From assembly GCA_045605805.1 (NCBI GenBank), contig JAZUQR010000010.1:32001-96000 (forward strand): a stretch of DNA of 64,000 bases, read 5' to 3'. The stretch comes from Alphaproteobacteria bacterium. GTDB taxonomy: Bacteria; Pseudomonadota; Alphaproteobacteria; CAAHEQ01; UBA3637. The notes beneath the pieces are model-generated. The model was not told the DNA's origin. It did no database searches and saw nothing but the letters and a program-made list of their open reading frames with translations. The position numbers and the translations under genes were made by a program. Of this stretch, positions 11,171 to 42,224 are shown piece by piece (position 1 is the first letter of the stretch; every line of letters begins with the position of its first letter).

Positions 11171-11246
<76 letters not shown>

Positions 11247-11419
11247 TGTGATAAAGCCCTCTTTCAAATGAGGGCTTTTTCTTTTAACTGTAAGGTTTTC
11301 GCTGAGTCCAATAATGGCAACATCAAAAAATGCTAAAAATCGAGAATTATCGGACTCTTAAATCAAAAATAACCCCTATCGATATGGCAATAGAGGTTAG
11401 AAACTAAAGAAATTTCAAT

Positions 11420-11950
11420 TCATAATACAATCCACCAACGTTGAATAATATGATTTGGATTCTTGGGGTCTTCTTTTTCTGATTCAAGTATTCCCCCATT
11501 TTTTTGGATTACTTTTTGAGAAGCAATATTGTCTTTATAACATGTTATTAAAATTTTCTTTTCTTTTCTTATTTTATAAAGTTCCAAAACTTGTCTCAAT
11601 GCTTCGGTTGCATATCCTTTTTTCCGTTCTCTTGGCTTTATATAATAGGCAACATGCCCTAATCTTTCAAAATAATCGCCTGTAATTTTATACCGCATAT
11701 CCAAAGTACCAACAATCACTCCACTTTTCATGTCTAATATCCAATACAGACACGAAGGAACATCTCGTGGGTGAATGTTGATACCTTGTTCTCTGTTTTT
11801 TAATCTCATATACATTGTGGAATAATCCTCATCGGGACGATATGCGTGTCCCAATTCAGAAACCTCATTAGCACACTTTGCTTCATTTAATAAATCAATA
11901 AAGCTATCTTGCCATTTAGGTTGAGGATGTATCAATTGTATATTACTCAT
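11420..11950 (-). CDS. GNAT family N-acetyltransferase (cassette cargo)
   Basis: GHVAYYIKPRERKKGYATEAL, ILITCYKDNIASQKVIQKNGG. Confidence 0.9.
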   Translation of the reverse strand: MSNIQLIHPQPKWQDSFIDLLNEAKCANEVSELGHAYRPDEDYSTMYMRLKNREQGINIHPRDVPSCLYWILDMKSGVIVGTLDMRYKITGDYFERLGHVAYYIKPRERKKGYATEALRQVLELYKIRKEKKILITCYKDNIASQKVIQKNGGILESEKEDPKNPNHIIQRWWIVL

Positions 11951-12051
11951 TATTTATGGGAACTCCTAAAATTTTGTGCATAACACCAGTTGCACTTATT
12001 ATTACAAGAACGATTGGTTGTAAACCAAACAGTAGAAGGAATAATTTCCAT
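11950..12051 (-). pseudogene. 33-aa radical SAM N-terminal fragment (MEIIPSTVWFTTNRSCNNKCNWCYAQNFRSSHK)
   Basis: CxxxCxxC-Y motif, AGGAGGTG RBS, stop overlaps GNAT start (TAATG); too short for the ORF track. Confidence 0.7.
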
Positions 12052-12316
12052 TTGACACCTCCTATCGTCTAATGGTGTAACAAAAAAGTATCAAAATGTC
12101 AAACTATTTTATTATTCAACATATTTTTTGTAGTTTTTCTTTTAATTCTTCTGTAATAGTGGGCCGATAAGCGCAAAGCAGCCCGCACCATGTGATAAAG
12201 TTCTCTTTCAAATGAGGGCTTTTTTTATTTCAATATCAATTTGCCTATATTTTTTGCTTGATTTTGGGAAAGATTCGGGGCATACTCAAAGAAAACCAAA
12301 GTATGGGAGGTGGCTT

Positions 12317-15526: not shown

Positions 15527-16791
15527 GCCACAATTCCCCGTTCTTTCAAACATTGATACAGGCGATCCAACACAGCCATTTCACTGGTGGCTGTGGCATG
15601 GGCTTTTTCATTTAACTGAACTTGCTTTTCGGGGTTCTTTAACAAATCTTTGATTGTTTCCAGCAATTCTTTTTCATCTTTCACTTCCAACAAGGCTTGT
15701 TTTTCCTTACCAGATTGAACAATTTCTTTGAAGTTAAACGCATAAGGGCCAATAATCACCGATTTAGACAGACTCATCGGTTCCAACATATTTTGGCCTC
15801 CAAATGGAATGAGGCTGCCCCCCACCAAAACAATGGGGGCCAACCGATAGAGCAGGCCCATTTCACCAATGGTATCAGCCAGATATACATCTGTGCTTGC
15901 GGTGATTTCTTCGTTGCGAGAACGACGGGCCACCGTCAAGCCGTTTTTTATGAACATTTTTTCAATGTCATCCGCCCGATTGGGGTGACGTGGCACATTT
16001 ATTGTTAAAATGTTGGGCCAAATCTTTTTTAATTCGTGGTGTACAAAGGCCATTTTTTCTTCCTCATTATGATGCGTTGAGGCGCCCGACCAACAGGGGC
16101 GATTGCCAATGGCTTTTTGAATTTTTTCCAATTCAGCCGCATCAAACGGAGAAGGCGGTGCCGCATATTTTATATTCCCCACACAATCCGTTGCCGGACT
16201 GCCCAAAACCTGTAATCTGCGGGTGTTTTCGGGAGATTGCCCCAAAGTTAAAGTAAAAAATTTTAACAACGATTTAACAAACCATTTGGATTTTTGCCAA
16301 CGGGCAAAGGACTTATCCGAAATACGCCCATTTAATAAAACCAGCGGTATCCCTTCTTTATGAATAGCTGTCAACAAACTTGGCCAAAAGTCAGATTCAA
16401 ACCACAGCACGGCATCGGCCTTAAAATGACGCACAAATGAACGAGCCCCCCATGGAGAATCAATTGGAATAAATTGATGAAAAGCTCGGGGTGGCAACCT
16501 CTTGGCCATTAAATCGGCCGAGGTGACTGTGCCGCTTGTCACCATTATATTCAATTCAGAATCCATTTCCAACAACTTGTTTATCAAGGGCATCATAGAC
16601 AAACATTCACCCACGCTGGCCCCATGCATCCAAATCAATTTGCCTTGGGGACGGGGCTTTTTCGGATGTCCCAAGCGTTCACAGAATCTGCTTTTATTTT
16701 CTTTTCCTTTTAACAGGCGTATCCAAAACCACACCACCAAAAAGGGTGTCAATAACACAAAAATCACTCGGTATAAAAATAAAGCTATCAT
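15523..16791 (-). CDS. waaA: 3-deoxy-D-manno-octulosonic acid (Kdo) transferase
   Basis: WMHGASVGE, VPRHP, DTIGEM, GGQNMLEP. Confidence 0.96.
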   Translation of the reverse strand: MIALFLYRVIFVLLTPFLVVWFWIRLLKGKENKSRFCERLGHPKKPRPQGKLIWMHGASVGECLSMMPLINKLLEMDSELNIMVTSGTVTSADLMAKRLPPRAFHQFIPIDSPWGARSFVRHFKADAVLWFESDFWPSLLTAIHKEGIPLVLLNGRISDKSFARWQKSKWFVKSLLKFFTLTLGQSPENTRRLQVLGSPATDCVGNIKYAAPPSPFDAAELEKIQKAIGNRPCWSGASTHHNEEEKMAFVHHELKKIWPNILTINVPRHPNRADDIEKMFIKNGLTVARRSRNEEITASTDVYLADTIGEMGLLYRLAPIVLVGGSLIPFGGQNMLEPMSLSKSVIIGPYAFNFKEIVQSGKEKQALLEVKDEKELLETIKDLLKNPEKQVQLNEKAHATATSEMAVLDRLYQCLKERGIVA

Positions 16792-16854
16792 TTTTTCTCA
16801 CTTTTTGTTAAAATACAAAGGTATTTTAGCAAACTTTGAATCAAAAGGCAACAG

Positions 16855-17376
16855 ATGATTGGACTTTATGCACAAAATCAAAATACTGTTTCACAATTAT
16901 TGCTTTTATCGGAGGGATTACCGATTGAGGCCTATCATCCCGACCATTCTTATTCACATATTATTTGCTTGGATGATTGCCCTCCAAAAAATAATGCCAT
17001 TATTTTAACTAAGGCCGATTTAGGGGTGCCTTTGTCTGGCACAGAGTGGCGATTATTTATTCAAAAAATAAGTGCCGCTTCTGTGCATTACCGCAACGAT
17101 TGGTTTTATTTTGATGCTTCTTTACGCTTGATTACAAACTTAAAAACCGCAAAAGCCATCTCTTTAACCGAAAAAGAAACGGATATTTTGGCGTTTTTGG
17201 TTCAATCCAAGAACCATCAATGCACCAAAGAGATGATGCTTCAATCTGTTTGGGGATATCATCCCGATGCAGAAACACATACCTTGGAAAGCCATTTCTA
17301 TATCCTTAAACAAAAGTTGGGGCAAGATATAGTCCATTTATTACAAATGAAAGACGCTGTTCTTTTCCTTCTTTAA
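16855..17376 (+). CDS. OmpR/PhoB-type winged-helix DNA-binding protein with a degenerate receiver
   Basis: LTEKETDIL...VWGYHPDAETHTLESHFYILKQKL. Confidence 0.75.
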   Translation: MIGLYAQNQNTVSQLLLLSEGLPIEAYHPDHSYSHIICLDDCPPKNNAIILTKADLGVPLSGTEWRLFIQKISAASVHYRNDWFYFDASLRLITNLKTAKAISLTEKETDILAFLVQSKNHQCTKEMMLQSVWGYHPDAETHTLESHFYILKQKLGQDIVHLLQMKDAVLFLL

Positions 17377-18021
17377 TTATTCTTCCATCAAAGCGCCTTG
17401 TGTGGCTTGTGGCAACCCCACACCCATGTTTGTATTTTCATTTGGTATTTGACCTTGTGTTGATGGTTGTCCTTGTGGCTGGGCTTGATTATCTTGTGTT
17501 GCAGGTTGTACAGAGGTCACGCCATAGAGCAACATTTGATTGAGTTTATCTTGCAATTCCGTATCTCGCAAAACAGGGTTTTTGGACAAATACCAAAGGA
17601 TATTCCTTCCAAAATCATCTGTAACCAACACATCCGCATTTGCTTGCATCAACAATTCCATCATCGCAGCATTTGGCGCATAACAAGCCGCAAACAAAAT
17701 CAATGGGATTTGTTTGGGTGCCCCTGCAATTGGGAACGCATCCAAGCTGACCATATCAGAAGCCCGTTTGGGCGATTGCTTCAACAGAGCCTCCAATATC
17801 TTGGGATTTCCTCGGCGAATGGCTAATTGCATCACTGAACCACCACAACGCACCGGTTTGTCAAACTCTGCCCCACGGGCAATTAAATTGTTGATTTGTT
17901 CTTCGTTTCTTGCCTTGGTAATCAATTCTTGAAACGGTGATAACACACATTCCACATTTCTTTGTGCCATTGCTGGCAATGCAGCGATTACACAAACAGA
18001 TAACAATAAAAACTTTTTCAT
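17377..18021 (-). CDS. secreted ankyrin-repeat-like protein
   Basis: signal peptide; LAIRRGNPKILEALLK, LLMQANADV..DDFGRN. Confidence 0.65.
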   Translation of the reverse strand: MKKFLLLSVCVIAALPAMAQRNVECVLSPFQELITKARNEEQINNLIARGAEFDKPVRCGGSVMQLAIRRGNPKILEALLKQSPKRASDMVSLDAFPIAGAPKQIPLILFAACYAPNAAMMELLMQANADVLVTDDFGRNILWYLSKNPVLRDTELQDKLNQMLLYGVTSVQPATQDNQAQPQGQPSTQGQIPNENTNMGVGLPQATQGALMEE

Positions 18022-18039
18022 TTTTCCCCCTTCTTTTTT

Positions 18040-18660
18040 TTATTCTTTATATGGATTATGAAAGATAAAAATGGTTTTGTCAACAGGAATGTTTTGTTTA
18101 ATATCAAAAAGCGATACTGTTGATTTTATTCCTTGTACATCCAACACATCCCATTGTTTCAGCTGTAATGTTTCTTTATCAATCACCAGTGTCAATTCGC
18201 CCAACTCTTTGGCCTCTTTTTTATGGGCGGTAATAAAATATTCATCCAACACATCTTGGACATCAGTCACCACAAAACCTTCATCATCAAACACAAGTTT
18301 TTCCCGCAAAATCCATTCCACAGGTGTGCTGTTCAAATCAAAATAATTCACTTCTTCCATATCTTTATCATGATAGATAAATGCCCCTTGGGTGGCCACA
18401 AACTCCAATGGAGAGCCTTGTTCATAGACAAGACGCATTTGGCCGGGGCGGGAAATATAAATTGTGCCGGTGTGCAGCTCATCTTTCATTTTAGAATTGA
18501 ATTGGGCAAACTTGGCCTGCAACGAATGCATTTTATTATAAGCCTTTTCCACCTTTGTTAAAATGGCCCGATTTGCTTTGGTATCAATATCTTTATCCAC
18601 AAGAGCAAGGCTTGGTGTAGCCATACATATACTTATCCACAACAATATCCATTTTTTCAT
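18040..18660 (-). CDS. lolA: outer-membrane lipoprotein carrier LolA family
   Basis: signal peptide, GTIYISRPGQMRLVY, LKQWDVLD; downstream of ftsK. Confidence 0.85.
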   Translation of the reverse strand: MKKWILLWISICMATPSLALVDKDIDTKANRAILTKVEKAYNKMHSLQAKFAQFNSKMKDELHTGTIYISRPGQMRLVYEQGSPLEFVATQGAFIYHDKDMEEVNYFDLNSTPVEWILREKLVFDDEGFVVTDVQDVLDEYFITAHKKEAKELGELTLVIDKETLQLKQWDVLDVQGIKSTVSLFDIKQNIPVDKTIFIFHNPYKE

Positions 18661-31482: not shown

Positions 31483-32007
31483 CTATTTCACTGTTTTTAC
31501 AGCCAATGCTACCGCTGTATTCAAGTCAGTTTCGGAACACAGCCCCAATGTCACAGGGTTGCGGGCTTGAATGTTGTGGTAATTTTTATGTGTTTTTTCA
31601 CGCATTGATACAATTGTGGCCTTGGTTGTTTTAACCAATTTCACAATTTGAGCATCAGATAATTCAGGATGATTTTTTACCAGCCACAGCACACCCGCCG
31701 GACGAGCCAATCTTTTAGATTGTGACACATAGCGTGACCCTTTGCTAAGCAGCCGGTCAATTTCAGGATGTGTGGACAATTCCAATTCGGCTTTTTCGTC
31801 TTTTTCACACCGATGAATTTCATCCCATGTCAATTGTTCATTCATAATCGGATCCAGCCCACGAATGTTAGATGCCACATCTCCATCAGCAATGGCTTGA
31901 ACTTCCAAAGTATGCATTCCGCAAAAATCGGCAATTTGCTTAAAAGTTAATCCTGTATTTTCAACCAACCATACGGCTGTTGCTTTTGGCATCAATGGTA
32001 AAGTCAT
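31483..32007 (-). CDS. trcR: cell-cycle transcription regulator TrcR (DUF1013)
   Basis: PLMPKATAVWLVENTGLTFKQIADFCGMH, PVTLGLCS. Confidence 0.92.
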   Translation of the reverse strand: MTLPLMPKATAVWLVENTGLTFKQIADFCGMHTLEVQAIADGDVASNIRGLDPIMNEQLTWDEIHRCEKDEKAELELSTHPEIDRLLSKGSRYVSQSKRLARPAGVLWLVKNHPELSDAQIVKLVKTTKATIVSMREKTHKNYHNIQARNPVTLGLCSETDLNTAVALAVKTVK

Positions 32008-35467: not shown

Positions 35468-35544
35468 GCGCCTGTAGCTCAGCTGGATAGAGTGTTGCCC
35501 TCCGAAGGCAAAGGTCGTGAGTTCGAATCTCGCCAGGCGCGCCA
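35468..35544 (+). tRNA. tRNA-Arg(CCG)
   Basis: GCGCCTG/CAGGCGC acceptor stem, TTGCC-CTCCGAA-GGCAA anticodon arm, GTTCGAATC, CCA. Confidence 0.96.
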
Positions 35545-35610: not shown

Positions 35611-35685
35611 TGGGGTGTCGCCAAGTGGTAAGGCAACGGTTTTTGATACCGTCATTCGTTGGTTCGAATCCAGCCACCCCAACCA
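35611..35685 (+). tRNA. tRNA-Gln(TTG)
   Basis: TGGGGTG/CACCCCA acceptor stem, ACGGT-TTTTGAT-ACCGT anticodon arm, GGTTCGAATCC, ends ACCA. Confidence 0.96.
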
Positions 35686-35915
35686 AACCGCACATAACGC
35701 CAATTATTGGTGTTTTTTCCTTTATTTTACAAGCACTTTTATCAGCTCGGAATAACCTTTTTGAAAAATAGCTAAAAAATATCAATTCCGAACCGGCACA
35801 TAAAATTTTCCTTTAAAATCAATAGTGAGTCGTTGGGAAAATTTACCAAGCCAAAAGTGGCTAAAATTTGAGGTTATCAGATTTTTAGCCTAGTACAAAC
35901 ATATCGAACCTGAAA

Positions 35916-36467
35916 TTAATGACACAATGCATCGTGACCAGGGTAATAAGTAAAATCCTCTTTGACTTGACCAACTATATTAATTCCATATGCTGTTTTT
36001 TCATCTTTTTTGTCTCGAGTCCAGGGACCAACACTGCCAATACTCGTTGGATTCAATTTTTCATTTATTTGCATTATCAAACTTTGTTCAGAACACCTTC
36101 CACTGGTGGGACATCCAAGTTCCTTTAAACTAAGTAATTTTTTTCCATATAAAGAACAAACATTTTCGGCTGATTTTAAATCAAATGCATCCCTAATAAC
36201 AATATATTCGTCTTTGCCACTTTTTATAACTGTACCTTCACTATCCATTTTAGAACAAGTTCCTTGAGGTTTAACTTGATAAACTTTTGTGTTTCTATAA
36301 CGACAATAACATTGCCCTTTAGAGCAAGTTTCGCCATTTTGATTTCTTTTTGAAATACAATCTGAATTCTCTGTGCAACTATCTCCTAAACGGGACGTAG
36401 CTGCCTCAGAGACGCTAATACAGAGTAGAGAAACACAGAAACAAGTTGAAATTATAATTTTTTTCAT
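35916..36467 (-). CDS. secreted Cys-rich hypothetical protein (cassette 1 cargo)
   Basis: AAGGAG RBS, signal peptide MKKIII..., many Cys. Confidence 0.75.
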   Translation of the reverse strand: MKKIIISTCFCVSLLCISVSEAATSRLGDSCTENSDCISKRNQNGETCSKGQCYCRYRNTKVYQVKPQGTCSKMDSEGTVIKSGKDEYIVIRDAFDLKSAENVCSLYGKKLLSLKELGCPTSGRCSEQSLIMQINEKLNPTSIGSVGPWTRDKKDEKTAYGINIVGQVKEDFTYYPGHDALCH

Positions 36468-36530
36468 TGGTTAGTCTCCTTTTTCTTTTCATTATACTTT
36501 ATAAAGAAATATATTTCAACTCTAAATTTC

Positions 36531-36670
36531 AGCTCGGAAATTGCACAACGAGTCCAGCCAAAACAGACAAGTCGCTATTTTTAGCGACTTTTTTATGATT
36601 TTACAATCACTTACACCGGTCCGTGTACAGCGTTTTTCAAAAAGCTCTTTTTTCAGCCCTACACTGACTT
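36531..36670 (+). repeat. cassette junction repeat, copy A
   Basis: AGCTCGGAA..CCAGCCA, hairpin AAGTCGCTA/TAGCGACTT, TTTTACAATCACTTA, GGTCCGTGTA...TACACTGACT. Confidence 0.88.
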
Positions 36671-36691
36671 TTATAAGAAGCATTTAGTAGT

Positions 36692-36720
36692 TTGACATTT
36701 CAAATGAATTATGTTAGTCT
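36692..36720 (+). promoter_or_regulatory. sigma70 promoter inside cassette 2
   Basis: TTGACA-N17-TAGTCT with TG extension. Confidence 0.6.
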
Positions 36721-36741
36721 ATAAAAATAAAAGGAGAAGGA

Positions 36742-37521
36742 ATGATTAGGTACTACTGTAGTGGATTTGATGTACATAATGCCTTTGGACATGGTTTGGG
36801 TGAGATGTTCAAATCAGAATTAAAAGATACTAGGAGTATTGTCTATATTCCTGGCGGTTCGGACAAAATTGAAAAAGTACAAACGAAATATGTTCCCACT
36901 TTTACCAATTATTTCGGTAATGTGGGAATTAAATTTGATCAAGTAAATATTTTTACTCCCAATATACAACCAGAACAAGCAGCTAAAATGTGTGAAAATG
37001 CCAGCTTTATTGTTTTGATGGGCGGTTGTCCCTTTAAACAAAAACAGCTGTGTGAAAATTTGGGAATTATGCAACAACTGAAAGATTATAAGGGGATTAT
37101 GGTGGGTATGAGTGCGGGGGCTATGTTGATGTCAAAAAATATTATAATTACCCCATGTAGTGCGGAATATCCAGATTTTCACATAGAAGATGGTTTAAAT
37201 CTAGATGGGATTTCAATCTATCCACATAATAATACTTCAAATGTGAACTATCCAGATGAGTTAGTCGTAGGAGATGAAACGTATAAAAAATCGGATTTGA
37301 TTGAGGCTGCTCGCCAATGTGGTCCATTTTATTTGTTGCAAGATAACCCCAGAGAAAATGGAAAAACAGATGTCAGCATTATTAAGTCCACCAATGGAAA
37401 AATTGACTTTTACATTGAAAATGATGGAAAAATCTGGATGGTTGATAAAGATATAAAACCTATTACAGATTTTAAGAAGACACTTTATCAACGTAAAATT
37501 AGTCCGTGTATTGCAAGATGA
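36742..37521 (+). CDS. peptidase S51 (PepE-like, class I glutamine amidotransferase fold), cassette 2 cargo
   Basis: YIP, LMGG.P, GMSAGAM nucleophile elbow, IYPH. Confidence 0.8.
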   Translation: MIRYYCSGFDVHNAFGHGLGEMFKSELKDTRSIVYIPGGSDKIEKVQTKYVPTFTNYFGNVGIKFDQVNIFTPNIQPEQAAKMCENASFIVLMGGCPFKQKQLCENLGIMQQLKDYKGIMVGMSAGAMLMSKNIIITPCSAEYPDFHIEDGLNLDGISIYPHNNTSNVNYPDELVVGDETYKKSDLIEAARQCGPFYLLQDNPRENGKTDVSIIKSTNGKIDFYIENDGKIWMVDKDIKPITDFKKTLYQRKISPCIAR

Positions 37522-37832
37522 CCCTAGCCAAACCGTGCAAGTCGTCAGAAATGGCGACCAATTCCAACATCAATTCATTCTGCGTTGCCACTTGAATTCA
37601 TTGTGTTTCATTGCTTTACGCATAAAAACTTGCCACTGGCAACTTTTTATTTGCGCAGTCTTTATTTTACAATCACTTATACTGGTCCGTGTACAGTGTT
37701 TTTCAAAAAGCTCTTTTTTCAGCCCTACACGGACTCAAAATCCCAAAAAGCCTTATTTTACAATGCTTCTGTCTTGGGATGTCAATTTTTCATCCCAGAG
37801 AGAGGAAGATGTATTCAGACTCAAATTTGATG
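37501..37832 (+). repeat. cassette junction repeat, copy B (with ~97-bp insertion)
   Basis: AGTCCGTGTA..CTAGCCA, terminator, TTTTACAATCACTTA, GGTCCGTGTA...TACACGGACT, GGGATG..CATCCC; closely similar to copy C. Confidence 0.9.
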
Positions 37833-37965
37833 TAAAAATGGGAAATTTTTTATGCCCCATAACCTAAATTTTTTGTAAAATCAAGGTTGACTATAAAAAA
37901 CAAGAATAAAAAGCCCCATTTCAAGAGAAACAGGGCATTATTTTTTTGTAAAGAAAATTTGTTAA

Positions 37966-38568
37966 CTATTCTCGACCACCATTAGCTAACATTTTCTGCA
38001 TAGCTACAATTTTTTTTACCCCTTCATCTTTTGTTTGAACCGCAATCTTATAAAGTTCTGGATTGACATCTTTCAAAGAATCAACCAAGATCATGCGTGT
38101 TTGGAAATATTCTTGATGCCAAGACAATGGTTTCTTTGGATTAGGCTTATCTCTGGAGGTTTGAAAATTCATAATTTTTTCAGCTAACAAAATTTCTTGT
38201 GCCTGAGGAGACAGTGTTTTTGCCCATTCAGCTTTTTCTTCCCATTGCTCTTTCTTTGTTTTATTTTCGTCTTCTGGCTCTGTCATCAACTCTTGAATAA
38301 CAGACAAAACTTTTGGACCTGCGATTTGCTTAATTTGTTCCGGCGTTAAAGGAGATACACCTTCAGCAATTCGTTTTGTCTCAAAACATTTATGTAAAAG
38401 AGAAGCGCATACAGCAACTTCTTTGTCTTCGTTATCTAATGTAGAATGTTTTTGTACTAATTCTGTCGTTCCTTTAACTTGGTCCAACATAACCATACCA
38501 CCGCCATAGGTAACACCTTCGTGTAAACGCGTGGCATGATACAAACACTTGTTTTCTAATTCTGCCAT
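37966..38568 (-). CDS. small alarmone hydrolase (Mesh1/SAH)-like protein with degenerate HD motif, cassette 3 cargo
   Basis: overall SAH pattern (A..LH.G, ASLLHK, G.KV..VI.EL.T, LAEKI.N, EYF); promoter TTGACA-N17-TACAAT at 38606-38634. Confidence 0.65.
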   Translation of the reverse strand: MAELENKCLYHATRLHEGVTYGGGMVMLDQVKGTTELVQKHSTLDNEDKEVAVCASLLHKCFETKRIAEGVSPLTPEQIKQIAGPKVLSVIQELMTEPEDENKTKKEQWEEKAEWAKTLSPQAQEILLAEKIMNFQTSRDKPNPKKPLSWHQEYFQTRMILVDSLKDVNPELYKIAVQTKDEGVKKIVAMQKMLANGGRE

Positions 38569-38662
38569 TTTATATTCTCCTTTAATTTTAATATACTATA
38601 AAGAAATTGTATAATAAATGGAAAGATTTGTCAACATTTTTTACTGAGAATACCTCTAAATC

Positions 38663-38897
38663 AGTCCGCGTATTACCAGACTTCTCCCGCCAAAACAGAT
38701 AAGTCGCTAGAAATAGTGACTTTTTATTATTTTACAATCACTTATACAGGTCCGTGTACAGTGTTTTTCAAAAAGCCTGTTTTTCAGCTCTACACGGACT
38801 CACATTTCAAAAAAGCCTTTGTTTTCAATGCTTCTGCCTTGGGATGTCAATTTTTCATTCCAGAGATTGTTGAATGTATTCAGACTGAGCTTAGATG
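38663..38897 (+). repeat. cassette junction repeat, copy C
   Basis: AGTCCGCGTA..CCCGCCA, AAGTCGCTA/TAGTGACTT, TTTTACAATCACTTA, GGTCCGTGTA...TACACGGACT. Confidence 0.9.
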
Positions 38898-39033
38898 AGA
38901 AAAAAGTGTTTCTATAACACGCTTATTTCTATTACCAGTTCTGGTGGCCTATTTCTTTATTTTTTTCTTGCTAAAAAAGCACACACATGCTACCCTATCC
39001 GTATATCAATAATAATTATTTACGGATAGAAAA

Positions 39034-40341
39034 ATGACAAAATATCGTATCATTGGCAATATGACCGGAAATTCTATGGATGCAATAGATTTAGTTTTAA
39101 CAGAATTTGACGGTGATATAATGCGAGACATTTGTACATACACAAAACCTTATTCTAAAGATATGCAGAATAAAGTTGAAAGTTTGCGTGCAAAGGTCTT
39201 TAATAAAACATCCACAGAGATAGAAACCCTTCCAGAATTTACTTCTGTCCATGATGAATATATTCGCCAAATTGCAGAATGTATTAATGAAATGTGTGAA
39301 AAATACGACATTGACAAAAACAATATTGATGCAATAGGATTTCATGGCAAAACACTAGACCATAATCCGCCATCAAAAGCTTGTTTAGACGGAAGTCAAC
39401 CTTATACTTTGCAAATCGGTTCAGGACAAATGTTGGCCGATTTAACAGATATAGCGGTTGTTTATGATTTTCGTTCAGATCCATTGATGGCCGGCTTTGA
39501 TGGCGCACCACTGGTTCCACCCCATAATGCTCATATTTCGGCAACAGAGGGAGATGGTTGTTATTATAATGGAGGTAACACATCAAACTTTGCTTTGGTA
39601 GTTGATGGCTCTGCACTAATAGGCGCAGATGCCGGACCTTTTAATGAATATACTGATAATTATATTCGCAACCATACCGATGAATCTTTTGATAGAGATG
39701 GAACGTTCGGCAAAAAAGGAATATTAAATAAAGCTTTACTGCAAGAACTATTTAATTTTGGTCGCAAATATTATGAAGCCCCTTTACCAAAATCTGGTGA
39801 TCCCGCTTATTATTACAAGGGACAAATTTTTCAATATATCAATCAGAAAAAATTTAAGTTTGAAGATGTTGTTCATACGTTTGAATATTTTGCAGCTTAT
39901 ATCGCTGTACAAGCTTTGAGTTTAATACCTAATGATATAAAAATACCAAATAAAATGATTTTGTTTGGTGGAGGCTGGAAAAACCCCATAGTTAAAGAAA
40001 CTTTTGAAAAATTACTAAAAGGTCAGAGATATGTTTTGCCGGAACATCAAGAACAGTTTACTAAATTGTTAAATCGCTTTTCTAGTTGTCCAGAAGTTCG
40101 CAACTCAACTTTTGGTGATTATATGGAAGCCAGATTGTTTGCTGATTTAGCTCGTTACAAATTAGATAATAAAGCGTGGGAAATTCCTGAGATAGTTAAA
40201 TCAAAAAAATCGGTAATATGCGGACGGGTTGCAAAACCAAATAAAGATCGTAAAGAATATAACGATAGAGTTAATCGTGCAGCTAAAGGTTGGCAAAATT
40301 CTAATAATGTTAAAAATAAAATAGTAACAATAGAATATTAA
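39034..40341 (+). CDS. anmK: anhydro-N-acetylmuramic acid kinase-like protein, cassette 4 cargo
   Basis: GNMTGNSMDAID, GFHGKT, TLQIG, DFR..GAPLVP, DAGP.N, GGG. Confidence 0.8.
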   Translation: MTKYRIIGNMTGNSMDAIDLVLTEFDGDIMRDICTYTKPYSKDMQNKVESLRAKVFNKTSTEIETLPEFTSVHDEYIRQIAECINEMCEKYDIDKNNIDAIGFHGKTLDHNPPSKACLDGSQPYTLQIGSGQMLADLTDIAVVYDFRSDPLMAGFDGAPLVPPHNAHISATEGDGCYYNGGNTSNFALVVDGSALIGADAGPFNEYTDNYIRNHTDESFDRDGTFGKKGILNKALLQELFNFGRKYYEAPLPKSGDPAYYYKGQIFQYINQKKFKFEDVVHTFEYFAAYIAVQALSLIPNDIKIPNKMILFGGGWKNPIVKETFEKLLKGQRYVLPEHQEQFTKLLNRFSSCPEVRNSTFGDYMEARLFADLARYKLDNKAWEIPEIVKSKKSVICGRVAKPNKDRKEYNDRVNRAAKGWQNSNNVKNKIVTIEY

Positions 40342-40477
40342 TTATAATTCGTTTTTTACATCCAATATTTAGTAATTTTCTTGTAAAAATATAAAGGATT
40401 AGAAAGGTAGAACATAAAAAACAATGTGTTACAACCAATCATAATTTAGCTCGTGAATTGTGCACTGTCCCCAGCCA

Positions 40478-40638
40478 AAGGAAAGGCCTCCTTTATGGGT
40501 GTTTTTTTGTTGGGTTGAGGGGGTGAGAGCCAACGAATGGTTGGTTCGGTCACGAAGCGAAAGCGCAGTAGACACCGAAGGTGGTCCCGAAGGGATAAAT
40601 CGGCAAGCTGATTTACAATCCAGCCACCCCCCCAGCCA
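40478..40638. repeat. tRNA-Gln-derived REP-like hairpin element
   Basis: inverted tRNA-3' copy followed by GTTGGTTCG-[68-nt hairpin cluster]-AATCCAGCCACCCCCCCAGCCA. Confidence 0.75.
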
Positions 40639-40813
40639 AGTTGTGAGAGTCGTCAAATATGGCGACTTTTTCTTTTGCTTCTAAGTGCTTATTGTGGCTC
40701 GGAAGAAGATTTTGGAAAAGACCTAGAAACAAACTGTCTCAAACTAAAAACAATTTGCTTTCAATATGTTGTATTTTGTGCCATTCTCTAATCCAAAAAT
40801 AGCAAAAATTCAA

Positions 40814-41371
40814 TTATCTCTTTTTTAAATCAGAAAATCTTCTATAAACAAGCATCTCTAAATTAGGATGATTTCTGCTTATACCCATTTCTTGACCGTC
40901 CCAAATATGACCTTGAGCCTCAGCAGCTTTTCTAGAACGTGTATTTTCTTTTTGAATTTTTAAGATAACAGAATCTATTCCATTTTCAAACAACACTTTT
41001 TCAAAAGCTGTTGTTGCTTCGGGGCCATAATGTTGCCCCGCAAATTGTTCAAAAAGCATAACACCGAGCTCAATACTTTTGGGATTGTTTGGATTATCAG
41101 GATTAAATGCTCCGATTGTTCCCATCAATTCATTTGTTTCTTTATTCCAGATGCCGTAATTTATTTCTTTTTCTTCTGATAACACCATTTTAATAAAAGT
41201 TTCTTCTTTTTCAAATGTCATCGGTTCTTCAAAATGAGGTAAAAATCGTCCTAGCCATTCTCTTGACTTGTTAATAGAATCCACTAATAACTGTATATAT
41301 TCTTTATCCAGTGTATGTTTTTTCAGGACAATGCGTTCAGCTTCTATTTGTTGTGGTAAAACTAATTTCAT
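40814..41371 (-). CDS. GNAT N-acetyltransferase, RimL/RimJ-like
   Basis: IEAERIVLK, SREWL..FL, ELG...GQHYG.EA, ENTRSRKAAE. Confidence 0.82.
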   Translation of the reverse strand: MKLVLPQQIEAERIVLKKHTLDKEYIQLLVDSINKSREWLGRFLPHFEEPMTFEKEETFIKMVLSEEKEINYGIWNKETNELMGTIGAFNPDNPNNPKSIELGVMLFEQFAGQHYGPEATTAFEKVLFENGIDSVILKIQKENTRSRKAAEAQGHIWDGQEMGISRNHPNLEMLVYRRFSDLKKR

Positions 41372-41443
41372 TTTTACAGCCTTTCAGAGATTTTCTATAA
41401 TTTAACATAGTTTTTCAGTTGATCAAGTTTCTTTTAGGACTTT

Positions 41444-41671
41444 TCAACAATCTATGCCATTTTCGGTGATTTGGCATTGTTCCACGACAGCCCCAACCGC
41501 TTGCTTAAAGTCATAGTTAAAAGAAGATATTTTATCCGAAATGATGTTTTCAATTGTCCAACGCAAATCAAAATCATCAAACGCCCAAGCCACTTTTACC
41601 ATACCGGACATCAGGCTGACAGTGGTATATACCACACAAAATCCCAAGAAAATAGCTTTTATTTTTTTCAT
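41444..41671 (-). CDS. small hypothetical protein with N-terminal hydrophobic segment
   Basis: AAGGA RBS before MKKIKAIFLGF. Confidence 0.5.
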   Translation of the reverse strand: MKKIKAIFLGFCVVYTTVSLMSGMVKVAWAFDDFDLRWTIENIISDKISSFNYDFKQAVGAVVEQCQITENGIDC

Positions 41672-41684
41672 TTTTTCTTTCCTT

Positions 41685-42224
41685 TTATCTTTGAGTTTTA
41701 TACACTTTTTTCCCATTTGTGACATAGTCTTTTAACACTTGTTCCCCCGCCTCTGTTTCAAGGTTGCCATAGACAGTTATCCCTCGGTTCTTAAACTCGG
41801 TCAACCACCGTGGCTTAAAGCCTTCATCAAAGCCGGTTATTTCCTCTACACGCTTTGAAGGGACACCGTAATAGACCTCTTTGATACCAGACCACAAAAT
41901 CCTACCCAAACACATCATACACGGTTCGGCTGGCACATAAAGGGACAAATTATAAGGCGATAAATCATAAGTTTTCAAAACTTCTTGCGCTTTTTTAATG
42001 GTATTCATTTCGGCATGATGATGGCTGCATTGTGTTTGAACAACGGTATTCGCCTCTTTGGCAATCAAGTGTCCGTTTTCATCATACACTGCGGCCAAAA
42101 ACGGCCCATAGCCTTGTGTCATCATTTCTTTTAATTCTTGTTGAAGGGAGGCAATGATTTGGCAAGCCTGATTGACTTTTTGTGGATTTATTTTTTCATT
42201 CGCAATTATTTTTTGTGTGGACAT
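41685..42224 (-). CDS. nucleoside/guanine deaminase (CDA superfamily)
   Basis: GPFLA, HAEMN, EPCMMC. Confidence 0.9.
   Translation of the reverse strand: MSTQKIIANEKINPQKVNQACQIIASLQQELKEMMTQGYGPFLAAVYDENGHLIAKEANTVVQTQCSHHHAEMNTIKKAQEVLKTYDLSPYNLSLYVPAEPCMMCLGRILWSGIKEVYYGVPSKRVEEITGFDEGFKPRWLTEFKNRGITVYGNLETEAGEQVLKDYVTNGKKVYKTQR

Follow-up and report, generated by a model that had tools for sequence, protein, structure and literature searches.

Small single-gene units stacked head to tail behind tRNA genes in uncultured gut and rumen Alphaproteobacteria

In the genome of an Alphaproteobacteria bacterium (assembly GCA_045605805.1), a tRNA-Gln(TTG) gene is followed by six units arranged head to tail. 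This array lies on contig JAZUQR010000010.1, within the 64,000-nucleotide (nt) stretch at positions 32,001–96,000 of the forward strand, which was analyzed as a whole and is called the window below; coordinates without a contig label refer to it. The five genes of the array are mutually unrelated. The gene-bearing units, which we term cassettes, have a common anatomy with exact boundaries, are spread through the lineage, and have been exchanged between arrays and between species. We hold with moderate confidence that the array consists of miniature, non-autonomous integrative gene cassettes moved in trans; non-autonomous cassettes combined with a trans-acting site-specific recombinase are the most economical explanation and the best reading of the data. 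The host genome (designated G000; 1.21 Mb, 98.85% complete) was compared with a genus set of 21 genomes and with its order, surveyed as one family comprising 16 genera and 80 genomes. The relatives of the host are uncultured Alphaproteobacteria from the rumen and the gut.

The tRNA-Gln array and the anatomy of a cassette

The tRNA genes were called with ARAGORN, and tRNA-Gln(TTG) was also recognized by the Rfam tRNA model (63.3 bits). Direct reading of the sequence revealed the junctions CCAGCCA, CTAGCCA, CCCGCCA, CCCCAGCCA, and CCCAGCCA, which end at 36560, 37530, 38692, 40477, and 40638, respectively. A repeat search returned (i) a five-member junction family at 35678, 36553, 37523, 38685, and 40631; (ii) an 80-nt left-end family of 3 copies, 88–89% identical; (iii) a 177-nt pair, 85% identical; and (iv) a right-end family at 36528, 37498, and 40445. 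The G+C content is 31–37% in the array vs 41.7% in the contig. Terminator-like hairpins number 10, compared with 3.6 ± 2.3 in shuffled sequences, and 4 terminators are located immediately behind junctions (35696, 36569, 38701, and 40645). Two 11/12 promoter matches lie on the minus strand upstream of the unit 1 and unit 3 genes (36519–36491 and 38634–38606), with promoter-like sites overall not above shuffles (29 vs 22.8 ± 5.2). The units and their parts are listed in Table 1.

Table 1. Units behind tRNA-Gln(TTG) and the single cassette behind tRNA-Thr(CGT), with window positions (~, approximate limit).
Feature	Position	Strand	Description
tRNA-Arg(CCG)	35468–35544		Precedes tRNA-Gln(TTG)
tRNA-Gln(TTG), array anchor	35611–35685	+	Last A of CCA (35685) is the first junction
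Unit 1	35686–36560	+	Left end 35686–~35805; terminator 35696–35714, box, inverted repeat CAGCTCGGAAT..ATTCCGAAC
Unit 1 gene	35916–36467	-	183-amino-acid (aa) Cys-rich protein, N-terminal hydrophobic stretch, no Pfam family
Unit 1 right end	36531–36560		AGCTCGG motif 30 nt before CCA
Unit 2	36561–37530	+	Left end 36561–~36680; terminator 36569–36590; inverted repeat GTCCGTGTA..TACACTGAC
Unit 2 gene	36742–37521	+	Peptidase_S51, 43.5 bits, passes cut-off
Unit 2 right end	37501–37530		
Unit 3	37531–38692	+	Left end 37531–~37840, broken by ~100-nt multi-copy repeat (37559–37659)
Unit 3 gene	37966–38568	-	HD_4 match, sub-threshold (23.6 vs 27.2 bits)
Unit 3 right end	38663–38692		Terminates in unusual TCCCGCCA
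Unit 4	38693–40477	+	Left end 38693–~38905; right end 40448–40477
Unit 4 gene	39034–40341	+	AnmK
Unit 5, non-coding	40478–40638	+	Terminator, 5′ acceptor-like stretch, T-arm 5′ half (GGTTGGTTCGG)
Unit 5, distal part			~70-nt insert with small hairpins, then tRNA-Gln 3′-end copy, T-loop to CCA
Unit 6	40639–41499	+	Left end 40639–~40760, degenerate inverted repeat; right limit uncertain
Unit 6 gene	40814–41371	-	GNAT acetyltransferase
Unit 6 right end	~41468–41499		Possible, decayed
Cassette behind tRNA-Thr(CGT) (11171–11246)	11247–12190	+	Left end with inverted repeat
tRNA-Thr(CGT) cassette gene	11420–11950	-	

An initial annotation, made from the sequence alone, had placed the five CCA junctions at these same positions and had described unrelated single genes in either orientation, at least 2 of them with their own promoters; the direct reading, the Pfam scan with its mixed strands, and the two 11/12 promoter matches agree with it. 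Its calls of a PepE-like peptidase, AnmK, GNAT, and a Cys-rich protein stand, and its "SAH-like" label for the unit 3 gene is weak, the sub-threshold HD_4 match being the only one. The terminator that it saw at the start of every unit is present as a hairpin behind the junctions, except that in unit 3 the ~100-nt repeat, which carries its own terminator (37630–37642), has pushed the T-run away from the junction hairpin. Unit 5 is non-coding, as proposed, but is a tRNA-like module rather than a plain hairpin; the GNAT gene does follow the last junction, where it forms part of a sixth unit whose right end is decayed. The annotation also judged that the ends do not resemble attC sites. The junctions, which read CCA followed by a terminator, are in line with this when compared by eye with the attC core consensus.

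Two details of individual units may be added here. The final codons of the Peptidase_S51 gene (37501–37521) form the right-end motif of unit 2, so that the coding sequence overlaps the recombination end. The ~100-nt repeat that breaks the left end of unit 3, together with its terminator, is multi-copy in many congeners, with at least 5 listed copies in one genome, and has further copies in G000 (C27:72029–72121, C27:~73707–73753, and C21:104484–104584); it looks like a miniature mobile repeat.

The left end of a cassette (~130–200 nt) opens with a rho-independent terminator hairpin, continues with a conserved box and an inverted repeat, and in many cases includes a further hairpin. The terminator hairpin begins ~9 nt past the CCA, most commonly in the form AAGTCGYC..GRCGACTT followed by a T-run, and the inverted repeat has arms of 9–12 base pairs flanking a ~30-nt loop. 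The arms vary among cassettes yet remain complementary (GTCCGTGT/ACACGGAC, GTTCGAAT/TACGAAC, GCTCGGAA/TTCCGAAC, and GGTTCGATTGTT/AACAATCGAACC). Among 34 left ends from 9 genomes, tested for covariation with a structure supplied by hand, the two helices had 88.3% of their cells paired vs 77.6% in shuffles, a figure that kinship among the left ends can inflate. Changes on both sides occurred in 13 of the 17 pairs, none of 500 shuffles reached the observed value, and only 33–42% pairing was obtained in a control in which the 3′ partner was slid by 1–3 columns. The structure that RNAalifold proposed for the alignment was poor, with a shifted helix, and was dropped. An Rfam search over the left ends and unit 5 returned no family at E ≤ 1.

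The right end (30 nt) consists of an AGYYCG motif, a spacer conserved per array type, and a 6–8-nt copy of the 3′ end of the anchor tRNA that ends in CCA. The AGYYCG motif resembles the T-arm sequence GGTTCG moved 5 nt outward. We collected 58 CCA junctions from the retrieved loci (40 of cassettes and 18 of tRNA genes). The motif starts at −30 from the CCA in 24 of the 40 cassette junctions and at −25 in 13 of the 18 tRNA junctions, where it is the T-arm GGTTCG itself. Of all 58 junctions, 55 have a terminator stem whose end lies at +29 to +32. The tail of the right end tracks the host tRNA, reading ..CCAGCCA at tRNA-Gln, CTCCACCA at tRNA-Tyr, TCCGACCA at tRNA-Pro, CCGCCA at tRNA-Ser, GTACCA at tRNA-Leu, GCACCA at tRNA-Thr, and CAACCA at tRNA-Met; CCA is the sole element common to all junction types.

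The cargo is usually one gene in either orientation, and the units measure 0.6–2 kb. In a survey of 30 cassette open reading frames from seven arrays of congeners, Pfam assigned families to 19 and none to 11. The families include alpha/beta hydrolase, isochorismatase, periplasmic binding proteins, diacylglycerol kinase, methyltransferases, NUDIX, HAD, sulfatase, flavin reductase, NADAR, glycosyltransferases, MORN repeats, and DUF805; that is, accessory enzymes, transport, and surface genes. No recombinase or transposase was present among the 30.

Spread and exchange among genomes

A left-end profile located the design directly behind 6 tRNA genes of the host; in congeners it picked out additional tRNA species. 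In the host genome, tRNA-Gln(CTG) on contig C25 anchors another array, in which a unit-5-type module and a GNAT cassette are accompanied by a truncated module abutting phage-like genes; two cassettes each follow tRNA-Ser(GCT) and tRNA-Leu(CAA), and left ends lie directly behind tRNA-Pro(CGG) and tRNA-Ser(TGA). The single cassette behind tRNA-Thr(CGT) (Table 1) has a right end, ..GCCCGCACCA, that ends at 12190 and is followed by a second copy of the terminator of the tRNA itself, so that ~38 nt, terminator included, are repeated at this site. Arrays of congeners stand behind tRNA-Tyr, tRNA-Pro(GGG), tRNA-Lys(CTT), tRNA-Met, and tRNA-Glu(CTC). In all, the design is found behind at least 12 tRNA species, always in the orientation of the tRNA. 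A covariance model built on the cassette left end (R1) matched in all 21 genomes of the genus (3–47 matches each, 309 in total), in 72 of the 80 genomes and 14 of the 16 genera of the order, and in 3 of 149 sampled genomes from other families of the class. Two of these class outliers (G102 and G136) exhibit the full design in the retrieved loci.

Comparison of individual cassettes revealed that the same unit recurs in different arrays. A NADAR cassette is common to three congeners (G003, G001, and G013) at 91–96% identity, and between G003 and G001 the similarity starts in the terminator and stops at ..CCAGCCA(A). The AnmK cassette of unit 4 is 94% identical in G003 and 97% identical in G004, with flanking core genes at 64–72%. 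Its copies in these two genomes belong to arrays whose units end in tRNA-Met-like 3′ copies, and the final 6–8 nt follow that context; the G003 array lies behind an intact tRNA-Met gene, and none was found in the retrieved G004 stretch. The left end of unit 4 is matched at more than 90% by left ends from another genus, with core genes inside the host genus at 64–72% identity. At the tRNA-Gln(TTG) locus itself, G009 has an empty site, G008 has a shared gene instead of a cassette, and G005 has one decayed unit. A cytidine/deoxycytidylate-type deaminase gene (41685–42224, minus strand) lies between the array and a DUF4167 gene, and its homologue in G009 is located directly behind the other tRNA-Gln gene, a placement that suggests exchange between the two tRNA-Gln loci.

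Rearrangements at the locus were also visible in metagenomes. Assembled contigs from four gut or faeces runs of four studies (X1, X5, X9, and X19) were compared at ≥90% identity, and window parts without cover, including unit 1 in all four runs, were not counted as absent. Contigs with ~99% identical flanks (e.g., X5 records 17 and 24) diverge immediately after 35685. The joint 36576→37548 (X1 and X9) skips 971 nt, which is exactly unit 2, and the joint 40533→41417 (X1 and X9) skips unit 6 plus the 3′ part of unit 5. In X9 the right end of unit 3 is joined to a unit-5-type module with no unit 4 between them; in X1, X5, and X19 a unit-4-type left end directly follows a tRNA-Gln-type end; and in X1 a unit-3-type left end follows the AnmK right end. 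Unit 3 keeps its TCCCGCCA with a new right neighbour, and unit-4-type left ends follow different 8-mers; thus, the 8-mer belongs to the left-hand unit and the seam lies at the CCA. A joint that goes back (40630→38689) was considered as a circle junction and rejected, its left side reading as a plain tRNA-Gln end. Two possible crossover positions, one central to the inverted repeat of the left end and one within the T-loop-like segment of the right end, were discarded as well, since they misfit the similarity breakpoints.

Two classes of unit share these seams, namely gene cassettes, with 6–8 nt of the tRNA, and units with 17–20-nt copies of a tRNA 3′ end. Unit 5 has a 90% identical copy behind tRNA-Gln(CTG) on C25. 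Non-coding modules of this type (~160 nt) mimic a tRNA acceptor stem and T-arm with a ~70-nt insert in the T-loop, and occur in Gln, Met, Pro, and Thr versions (window 40478–40638; C25:3638–3481 and 2785–2709; and, also in G000, C30:12583–12900, C8:~15400–14190, and C21:101559–101703). The sequence of their small hairpins differs by tRNA type with the pairing kept, as judged by eye, and their tRNA copy starts in the T-loop. The modules may represent the joined ends of larger elements, or structured RNA.

Two larger elements of the host genome lie at tRNA genes. A ~26-kb integrative element at tRNA-Thr(GGT) (C21:75837–101558) encodes a 593-aa tyrosine integrase; three direct TGTAACACA repeats are located near its tRNA junction and one near its far end, where a 17-nt tRNA copy is also found. 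A ~50-kb prophage-like element (C8:15585–65255) is bounded by tRNA-Pro(GGG) on one side and by a 20-nt repeat of the 3′ end of that tRNA on the other, encodes a CcrB-like large serine recombinase (16477–18186), and has at its termini an inverted 12-mer centred ~7 nt before the CCA.

Candidate enzymes and competing explanations

If the units are non-autonomous cassettes, a circular cassette would undergo site-specific recombination with a tRNA gene, at its CCA or beside it, or with the right end of a resident cassette, at its CCA. The tRNA would stay intact and retain a terminator brought by the cassette, each insertion would recreate the target and lead to a head-to-tail pile-up, and older, distal units would decay. 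The recombinase, not being encoded by the cassettes, would act in trans, and the candidates for it are the tyrosine integrase of a tRNA-targeting element, a large serine recombinase, and the host XerCD.

The checks proposed with the initial annotation bear on this scheme. Those on relatives and on the end motif came out in its favour, as described above: cassette content at tRNA-Gln(TTG) differs among relatives, with other sets elsewhere; similarity between copies of the same cassette in other arrays breaks at the CCA; and the end motif recurs behind further tRNA genes. A genome search for a recombinase flanked by cassette ends, also proposed there, found none. The array had been called integrase-less, which holds for the window and its contig; the genome, however, contains 14 recombinase genes, 6 of the tyrosine type (Phage_integrase) and 8 of the serine type (Resolvase). 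Among the proteins of the host genome, NCBIfam names one XerD-like and one XerC-like. Integrase elements at tRNA genes in the 12 retrieved loci and the host genome included none with a cassette left end. A large serine recombinase is a candidate mobile helper, and was never found beside a gene-cassette array.

A series of observations weighs against the movement of these cassettes by a recombinase in trans. None of the 14 recombinase genes lies on the contig of the window, and a recombinase flanked by cassette ends was found neither in the host genome nor in the retrieved loci or IMG/VR. Three pattern scans of IMG/VR gave 0, 72, and 2 loci, and nhmmer on these 74 loci gave three partial, terminator-level matches and no full left end. 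In a genome that is 91% complete and has 14 left ends, the XerC-like/XerD-like pair are the only tyrosine recombinases seen. The ~590-aa integrases beside tRNA genes have junction-adjacent direct repeats (TGTAACACA, TGGGACACA, and TGTGATGC), taken here for putative arm-type sites, that differ from the cassette motif. Large serine recombinases were present in 12 of the 21 genus genomes and were not found in the two cassette-richest ones, including G001 with its 47 left ends. An Mpi-like invertase was rejected as the required enzyme, as it occurs in 61 of the 80 order genomes and its presence does not track the left ends. No excised circle junction was seen in the metagenomes, whose contigs are short and stem from mixed communities, with most joints having 20–43 fitting letters on the shorter side. 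Finally, when the right-end motifs of 28 cassettes were matched with their own and the neighbouring left ends, 6 fitted their own better, 7 fitted the neighbour better, and 15 were ties, and only ~3 cases were informative because most arrays are uniform.

The Mpi-like genes of the host genome form a family of their own. Five paralogues encode serine recombinases of ~200 aa (C13:11816–12433, C30:1555–2457, C21:88515–89138, C21:100237–100827, and C21:135806–136426); the C13 protein scores as an Mpi-family invertase, and the other four are 58–90% identical to it. Upstream of 4 of the 5 are inverted sites of the AACCAACGATT/AATCGTTCTATTAAA type, ~130–150 nt apart, which are possibly invertible switches. 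One Mpi-like gene is part of a 1.6-kb islet that follows tRNA-Leu(TAG) and terminates in a decayed copy of the 3′ end of this tRNA.

A further-reaching proposal is that an integron-like but unrelated system of gene capture operates across this order of small-genome gut and rumen Alphaproteobacteria. In it, any tRNA CCA could serve as a dock, the structured left end of ~130 nt and the T-arm mimic would form the site, and an unrecognized enzyme, chromosomal or mobile, would read the motif with an attP/attB-like 5-nt offset and leave the tRNA unharmed. We advance this tentatively, and doubt it somewhat more than we believe it. Relative to tRNAs, the T-arm-like motif of cassettes is displaced outward by 5 nt, which is reminiscent of the attP/attB offset described for serine integrases (PMC3783163), and the distances of 25–30 nt exceed the values given there. 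The apparent analogy is a lead and not a result.

Homologous exchange without a dedicated enzyme, for which "minimal mobile elements" are the model, would treat the left ends as portable homology: after DNA uptake, RecA would swap, delete, or duplicate genes, and gene conversion would even out the junctions. This fits the finding of no recombinase tied to the cassettes, left ends that are 85–95% alike within an array and across genera, and junction regions that are nearly identical within an array (Pro and Tyr). The different left-end subtypes of the AnmK cassette in G000 and G003 suggest an exchange inside the left end. However, similarity between cassette copies goes no further than the CCA, also in cases in which the adjoining unit opens with a left end, homology alone leaves the fixed 30-nt motif distance and the tRNA-specific 6–8-mer unexplained, and the constant tRNA orientation behind so many tRNA species also speaks against it; we consider enzyme-free exchange unlikely. 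A true integron analogue would instead rely on a chromosomal, lineage-wide recombinase, either XerCD or an unrecognized one, that recognizes the left-end hairpins folded from single-stranded DNA, with the exchange of one strand taking place at the CCA. Both left-end helices do keep their pairing as the sequence varies, although covariation of the inverted repeat also fits symmetric protein binding; CCA alone is shared by all junction types, but it lies outside both hairpins. Among the recombinases, only the XerC-like and XerD-like genes were seen genus-wide, and the order-wide presence of the design (72 of 80 genomes) accords with such an enzyme. Against this, no protein reached the cut-off of 265 bits for integron integrase TIGR02249, the best scores being 129.8 (XerD-like) and 127.8 bits (XerC-like), and two simple pattern scans, to which we attach no weight for conclusions, recognized no convincing dif-like site in the genome or the left end. 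We regard a single-strand system of this kind as improbable.

The units could also be what deletions have left of larger prophages or integrative elements, inserted into the tRNA gene in succession, with nothing mobile now. The ~26-kb tRNA-Thr(GGT) and ~50-kb tRNA-Pro(GGG) elements stack at the same CCA boundaries with 17–20-nt tRNA copies, the unit-5-type modules resemble the joined ends of such elements, and the distal units are decayed. Random remnants would nevertheless have to account for hundreds of units of 0.6–2 kb with one conserved end pair, for the recurrence of one cassette, its ends unchanged, at 91–97% identity across arrays and species, and for right ends that keep a conserved sequence of their own rather than being decayed tRNA copies. 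We therefore consider this origin very unlikely, and retain non-autonomous cassettes moved in trans as our preferred interpretation.

Significance and relation to known systems

Genomes of ~1–1.5 Mb carry up to 47 cassettes, which at ~1.1 kb each amount to a rough estimate of ~4% of the genome. With this load and their accessory cargo, the cassettes look like a main channel through which this uncultured gut and rumen lineage gains and loses genes. Their insertion as proposed would show that a tRNA 3′ end is reusable as a landing pad without damage, and the compact, conserved pair of DNA ends is such that the enzyme, once found, could serve as a tool for site-specific integration. In a limited full-text search of the literature, we found no published description of this cassette design.

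The closest architecture is that of cis-mobilizable elements (CIMEs) and the ssrA genomic islands of Dehalococcoides, in which integrative elements accrete and the insertion point lies in the T-loop, according to PMC3146451. There, as here, integrase-less units bounded by copies of the target 3′ end stand head to tail behind an intact RNA gene, integrase-bearing elements occur at the same kind of site, and the copy in the unit-5-type modules starts at the T-loop, as does the insertion point reported for the islands (PMC3146451). The gene cassettes likewise lack an integrase and are flanked by direct repeats of the target 3′ end, in copies of 6–8 nt. They differ in being single-gene units of 0.6–2 kb with conserved, structured ends of their own, in sharing only those few nucleotides with the tRNA, and in occurring at many tRNA species in most genomes of the order; moreover, no integrase-bearing parent element with the same att sequences was found in the 12 retrieved loci or the host genome.

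Integrons and clusters of attC sites lacking integron integrases (CALINs) contain small, mostly single-gene cassettes whose attC sites conserve their folding with variable sequence around a single conserved crossover triplet. The arrays described here are similarly composed of small, mostly single-gene, functionally unrelated cassettes with a conserved fold, a variable sequence, and a conserved triplet at the crossover, and the newest cassettes are probably those next to the anchor, as in integrons. By contrast, no IntI gene adjoins the array, the junction triplet is CCA rather than an attC core, and the anchor is a tRNA 3′ end rather than attI, with many anchors per genome. Nor are the cassettes promoterless and co-oriented behind a common promoter; their genes face either direction, each unit opens with a terminator, and promoter-like sites are found within the cassettes.

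The tycheposons of Prochlorococcus, as described in 10.1101/2020.12.28.424599, encode their own integrases, are flanked by partial tRNAs with att sites of typically ~40 nt, and number 1–2 per genome. Like the cassettes, they are cargo elements at several tRNA genes of a small genome, arranged in tandem with the older ones pushed outward (10.1101/2020.12.28.424599). The cassettes have neither a tyrosine recombinase of their own nor a ~40-nt partial-tRNA att site as described there; they share 6–8 nt with the tRNA and reach 47 units in a 1.2-Mb genome. Palindrome-associated elements of the IS200/IS605 type, Tn7-like elements, and IS110 elements also provide no match, as the host genome contains no Y1 HUH, rve, or DEDD enzyme (0 matches each to PF01797, PF00665, and IS110 PF01548).

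In the composite islands of the staphylococcal cassette chromosome (SCC), ccr-less pseudo-SCC units of 10–60 kb reside at the 3′ end of one gene and are served in trans by a large serine recombinase. Recombinase-less cassettes stacked at a gene 3′ end with short direct repeats of that end between them are common to both systems. The differences are that many tRNA genes rather than one gene are the targets here, and that a large serine recombinase was found in just over half of the genus genomes. We file the design as a variant of the tandem accretion of integrase-less elements at tRNA genes, which is integron-like in function and is not an integron.

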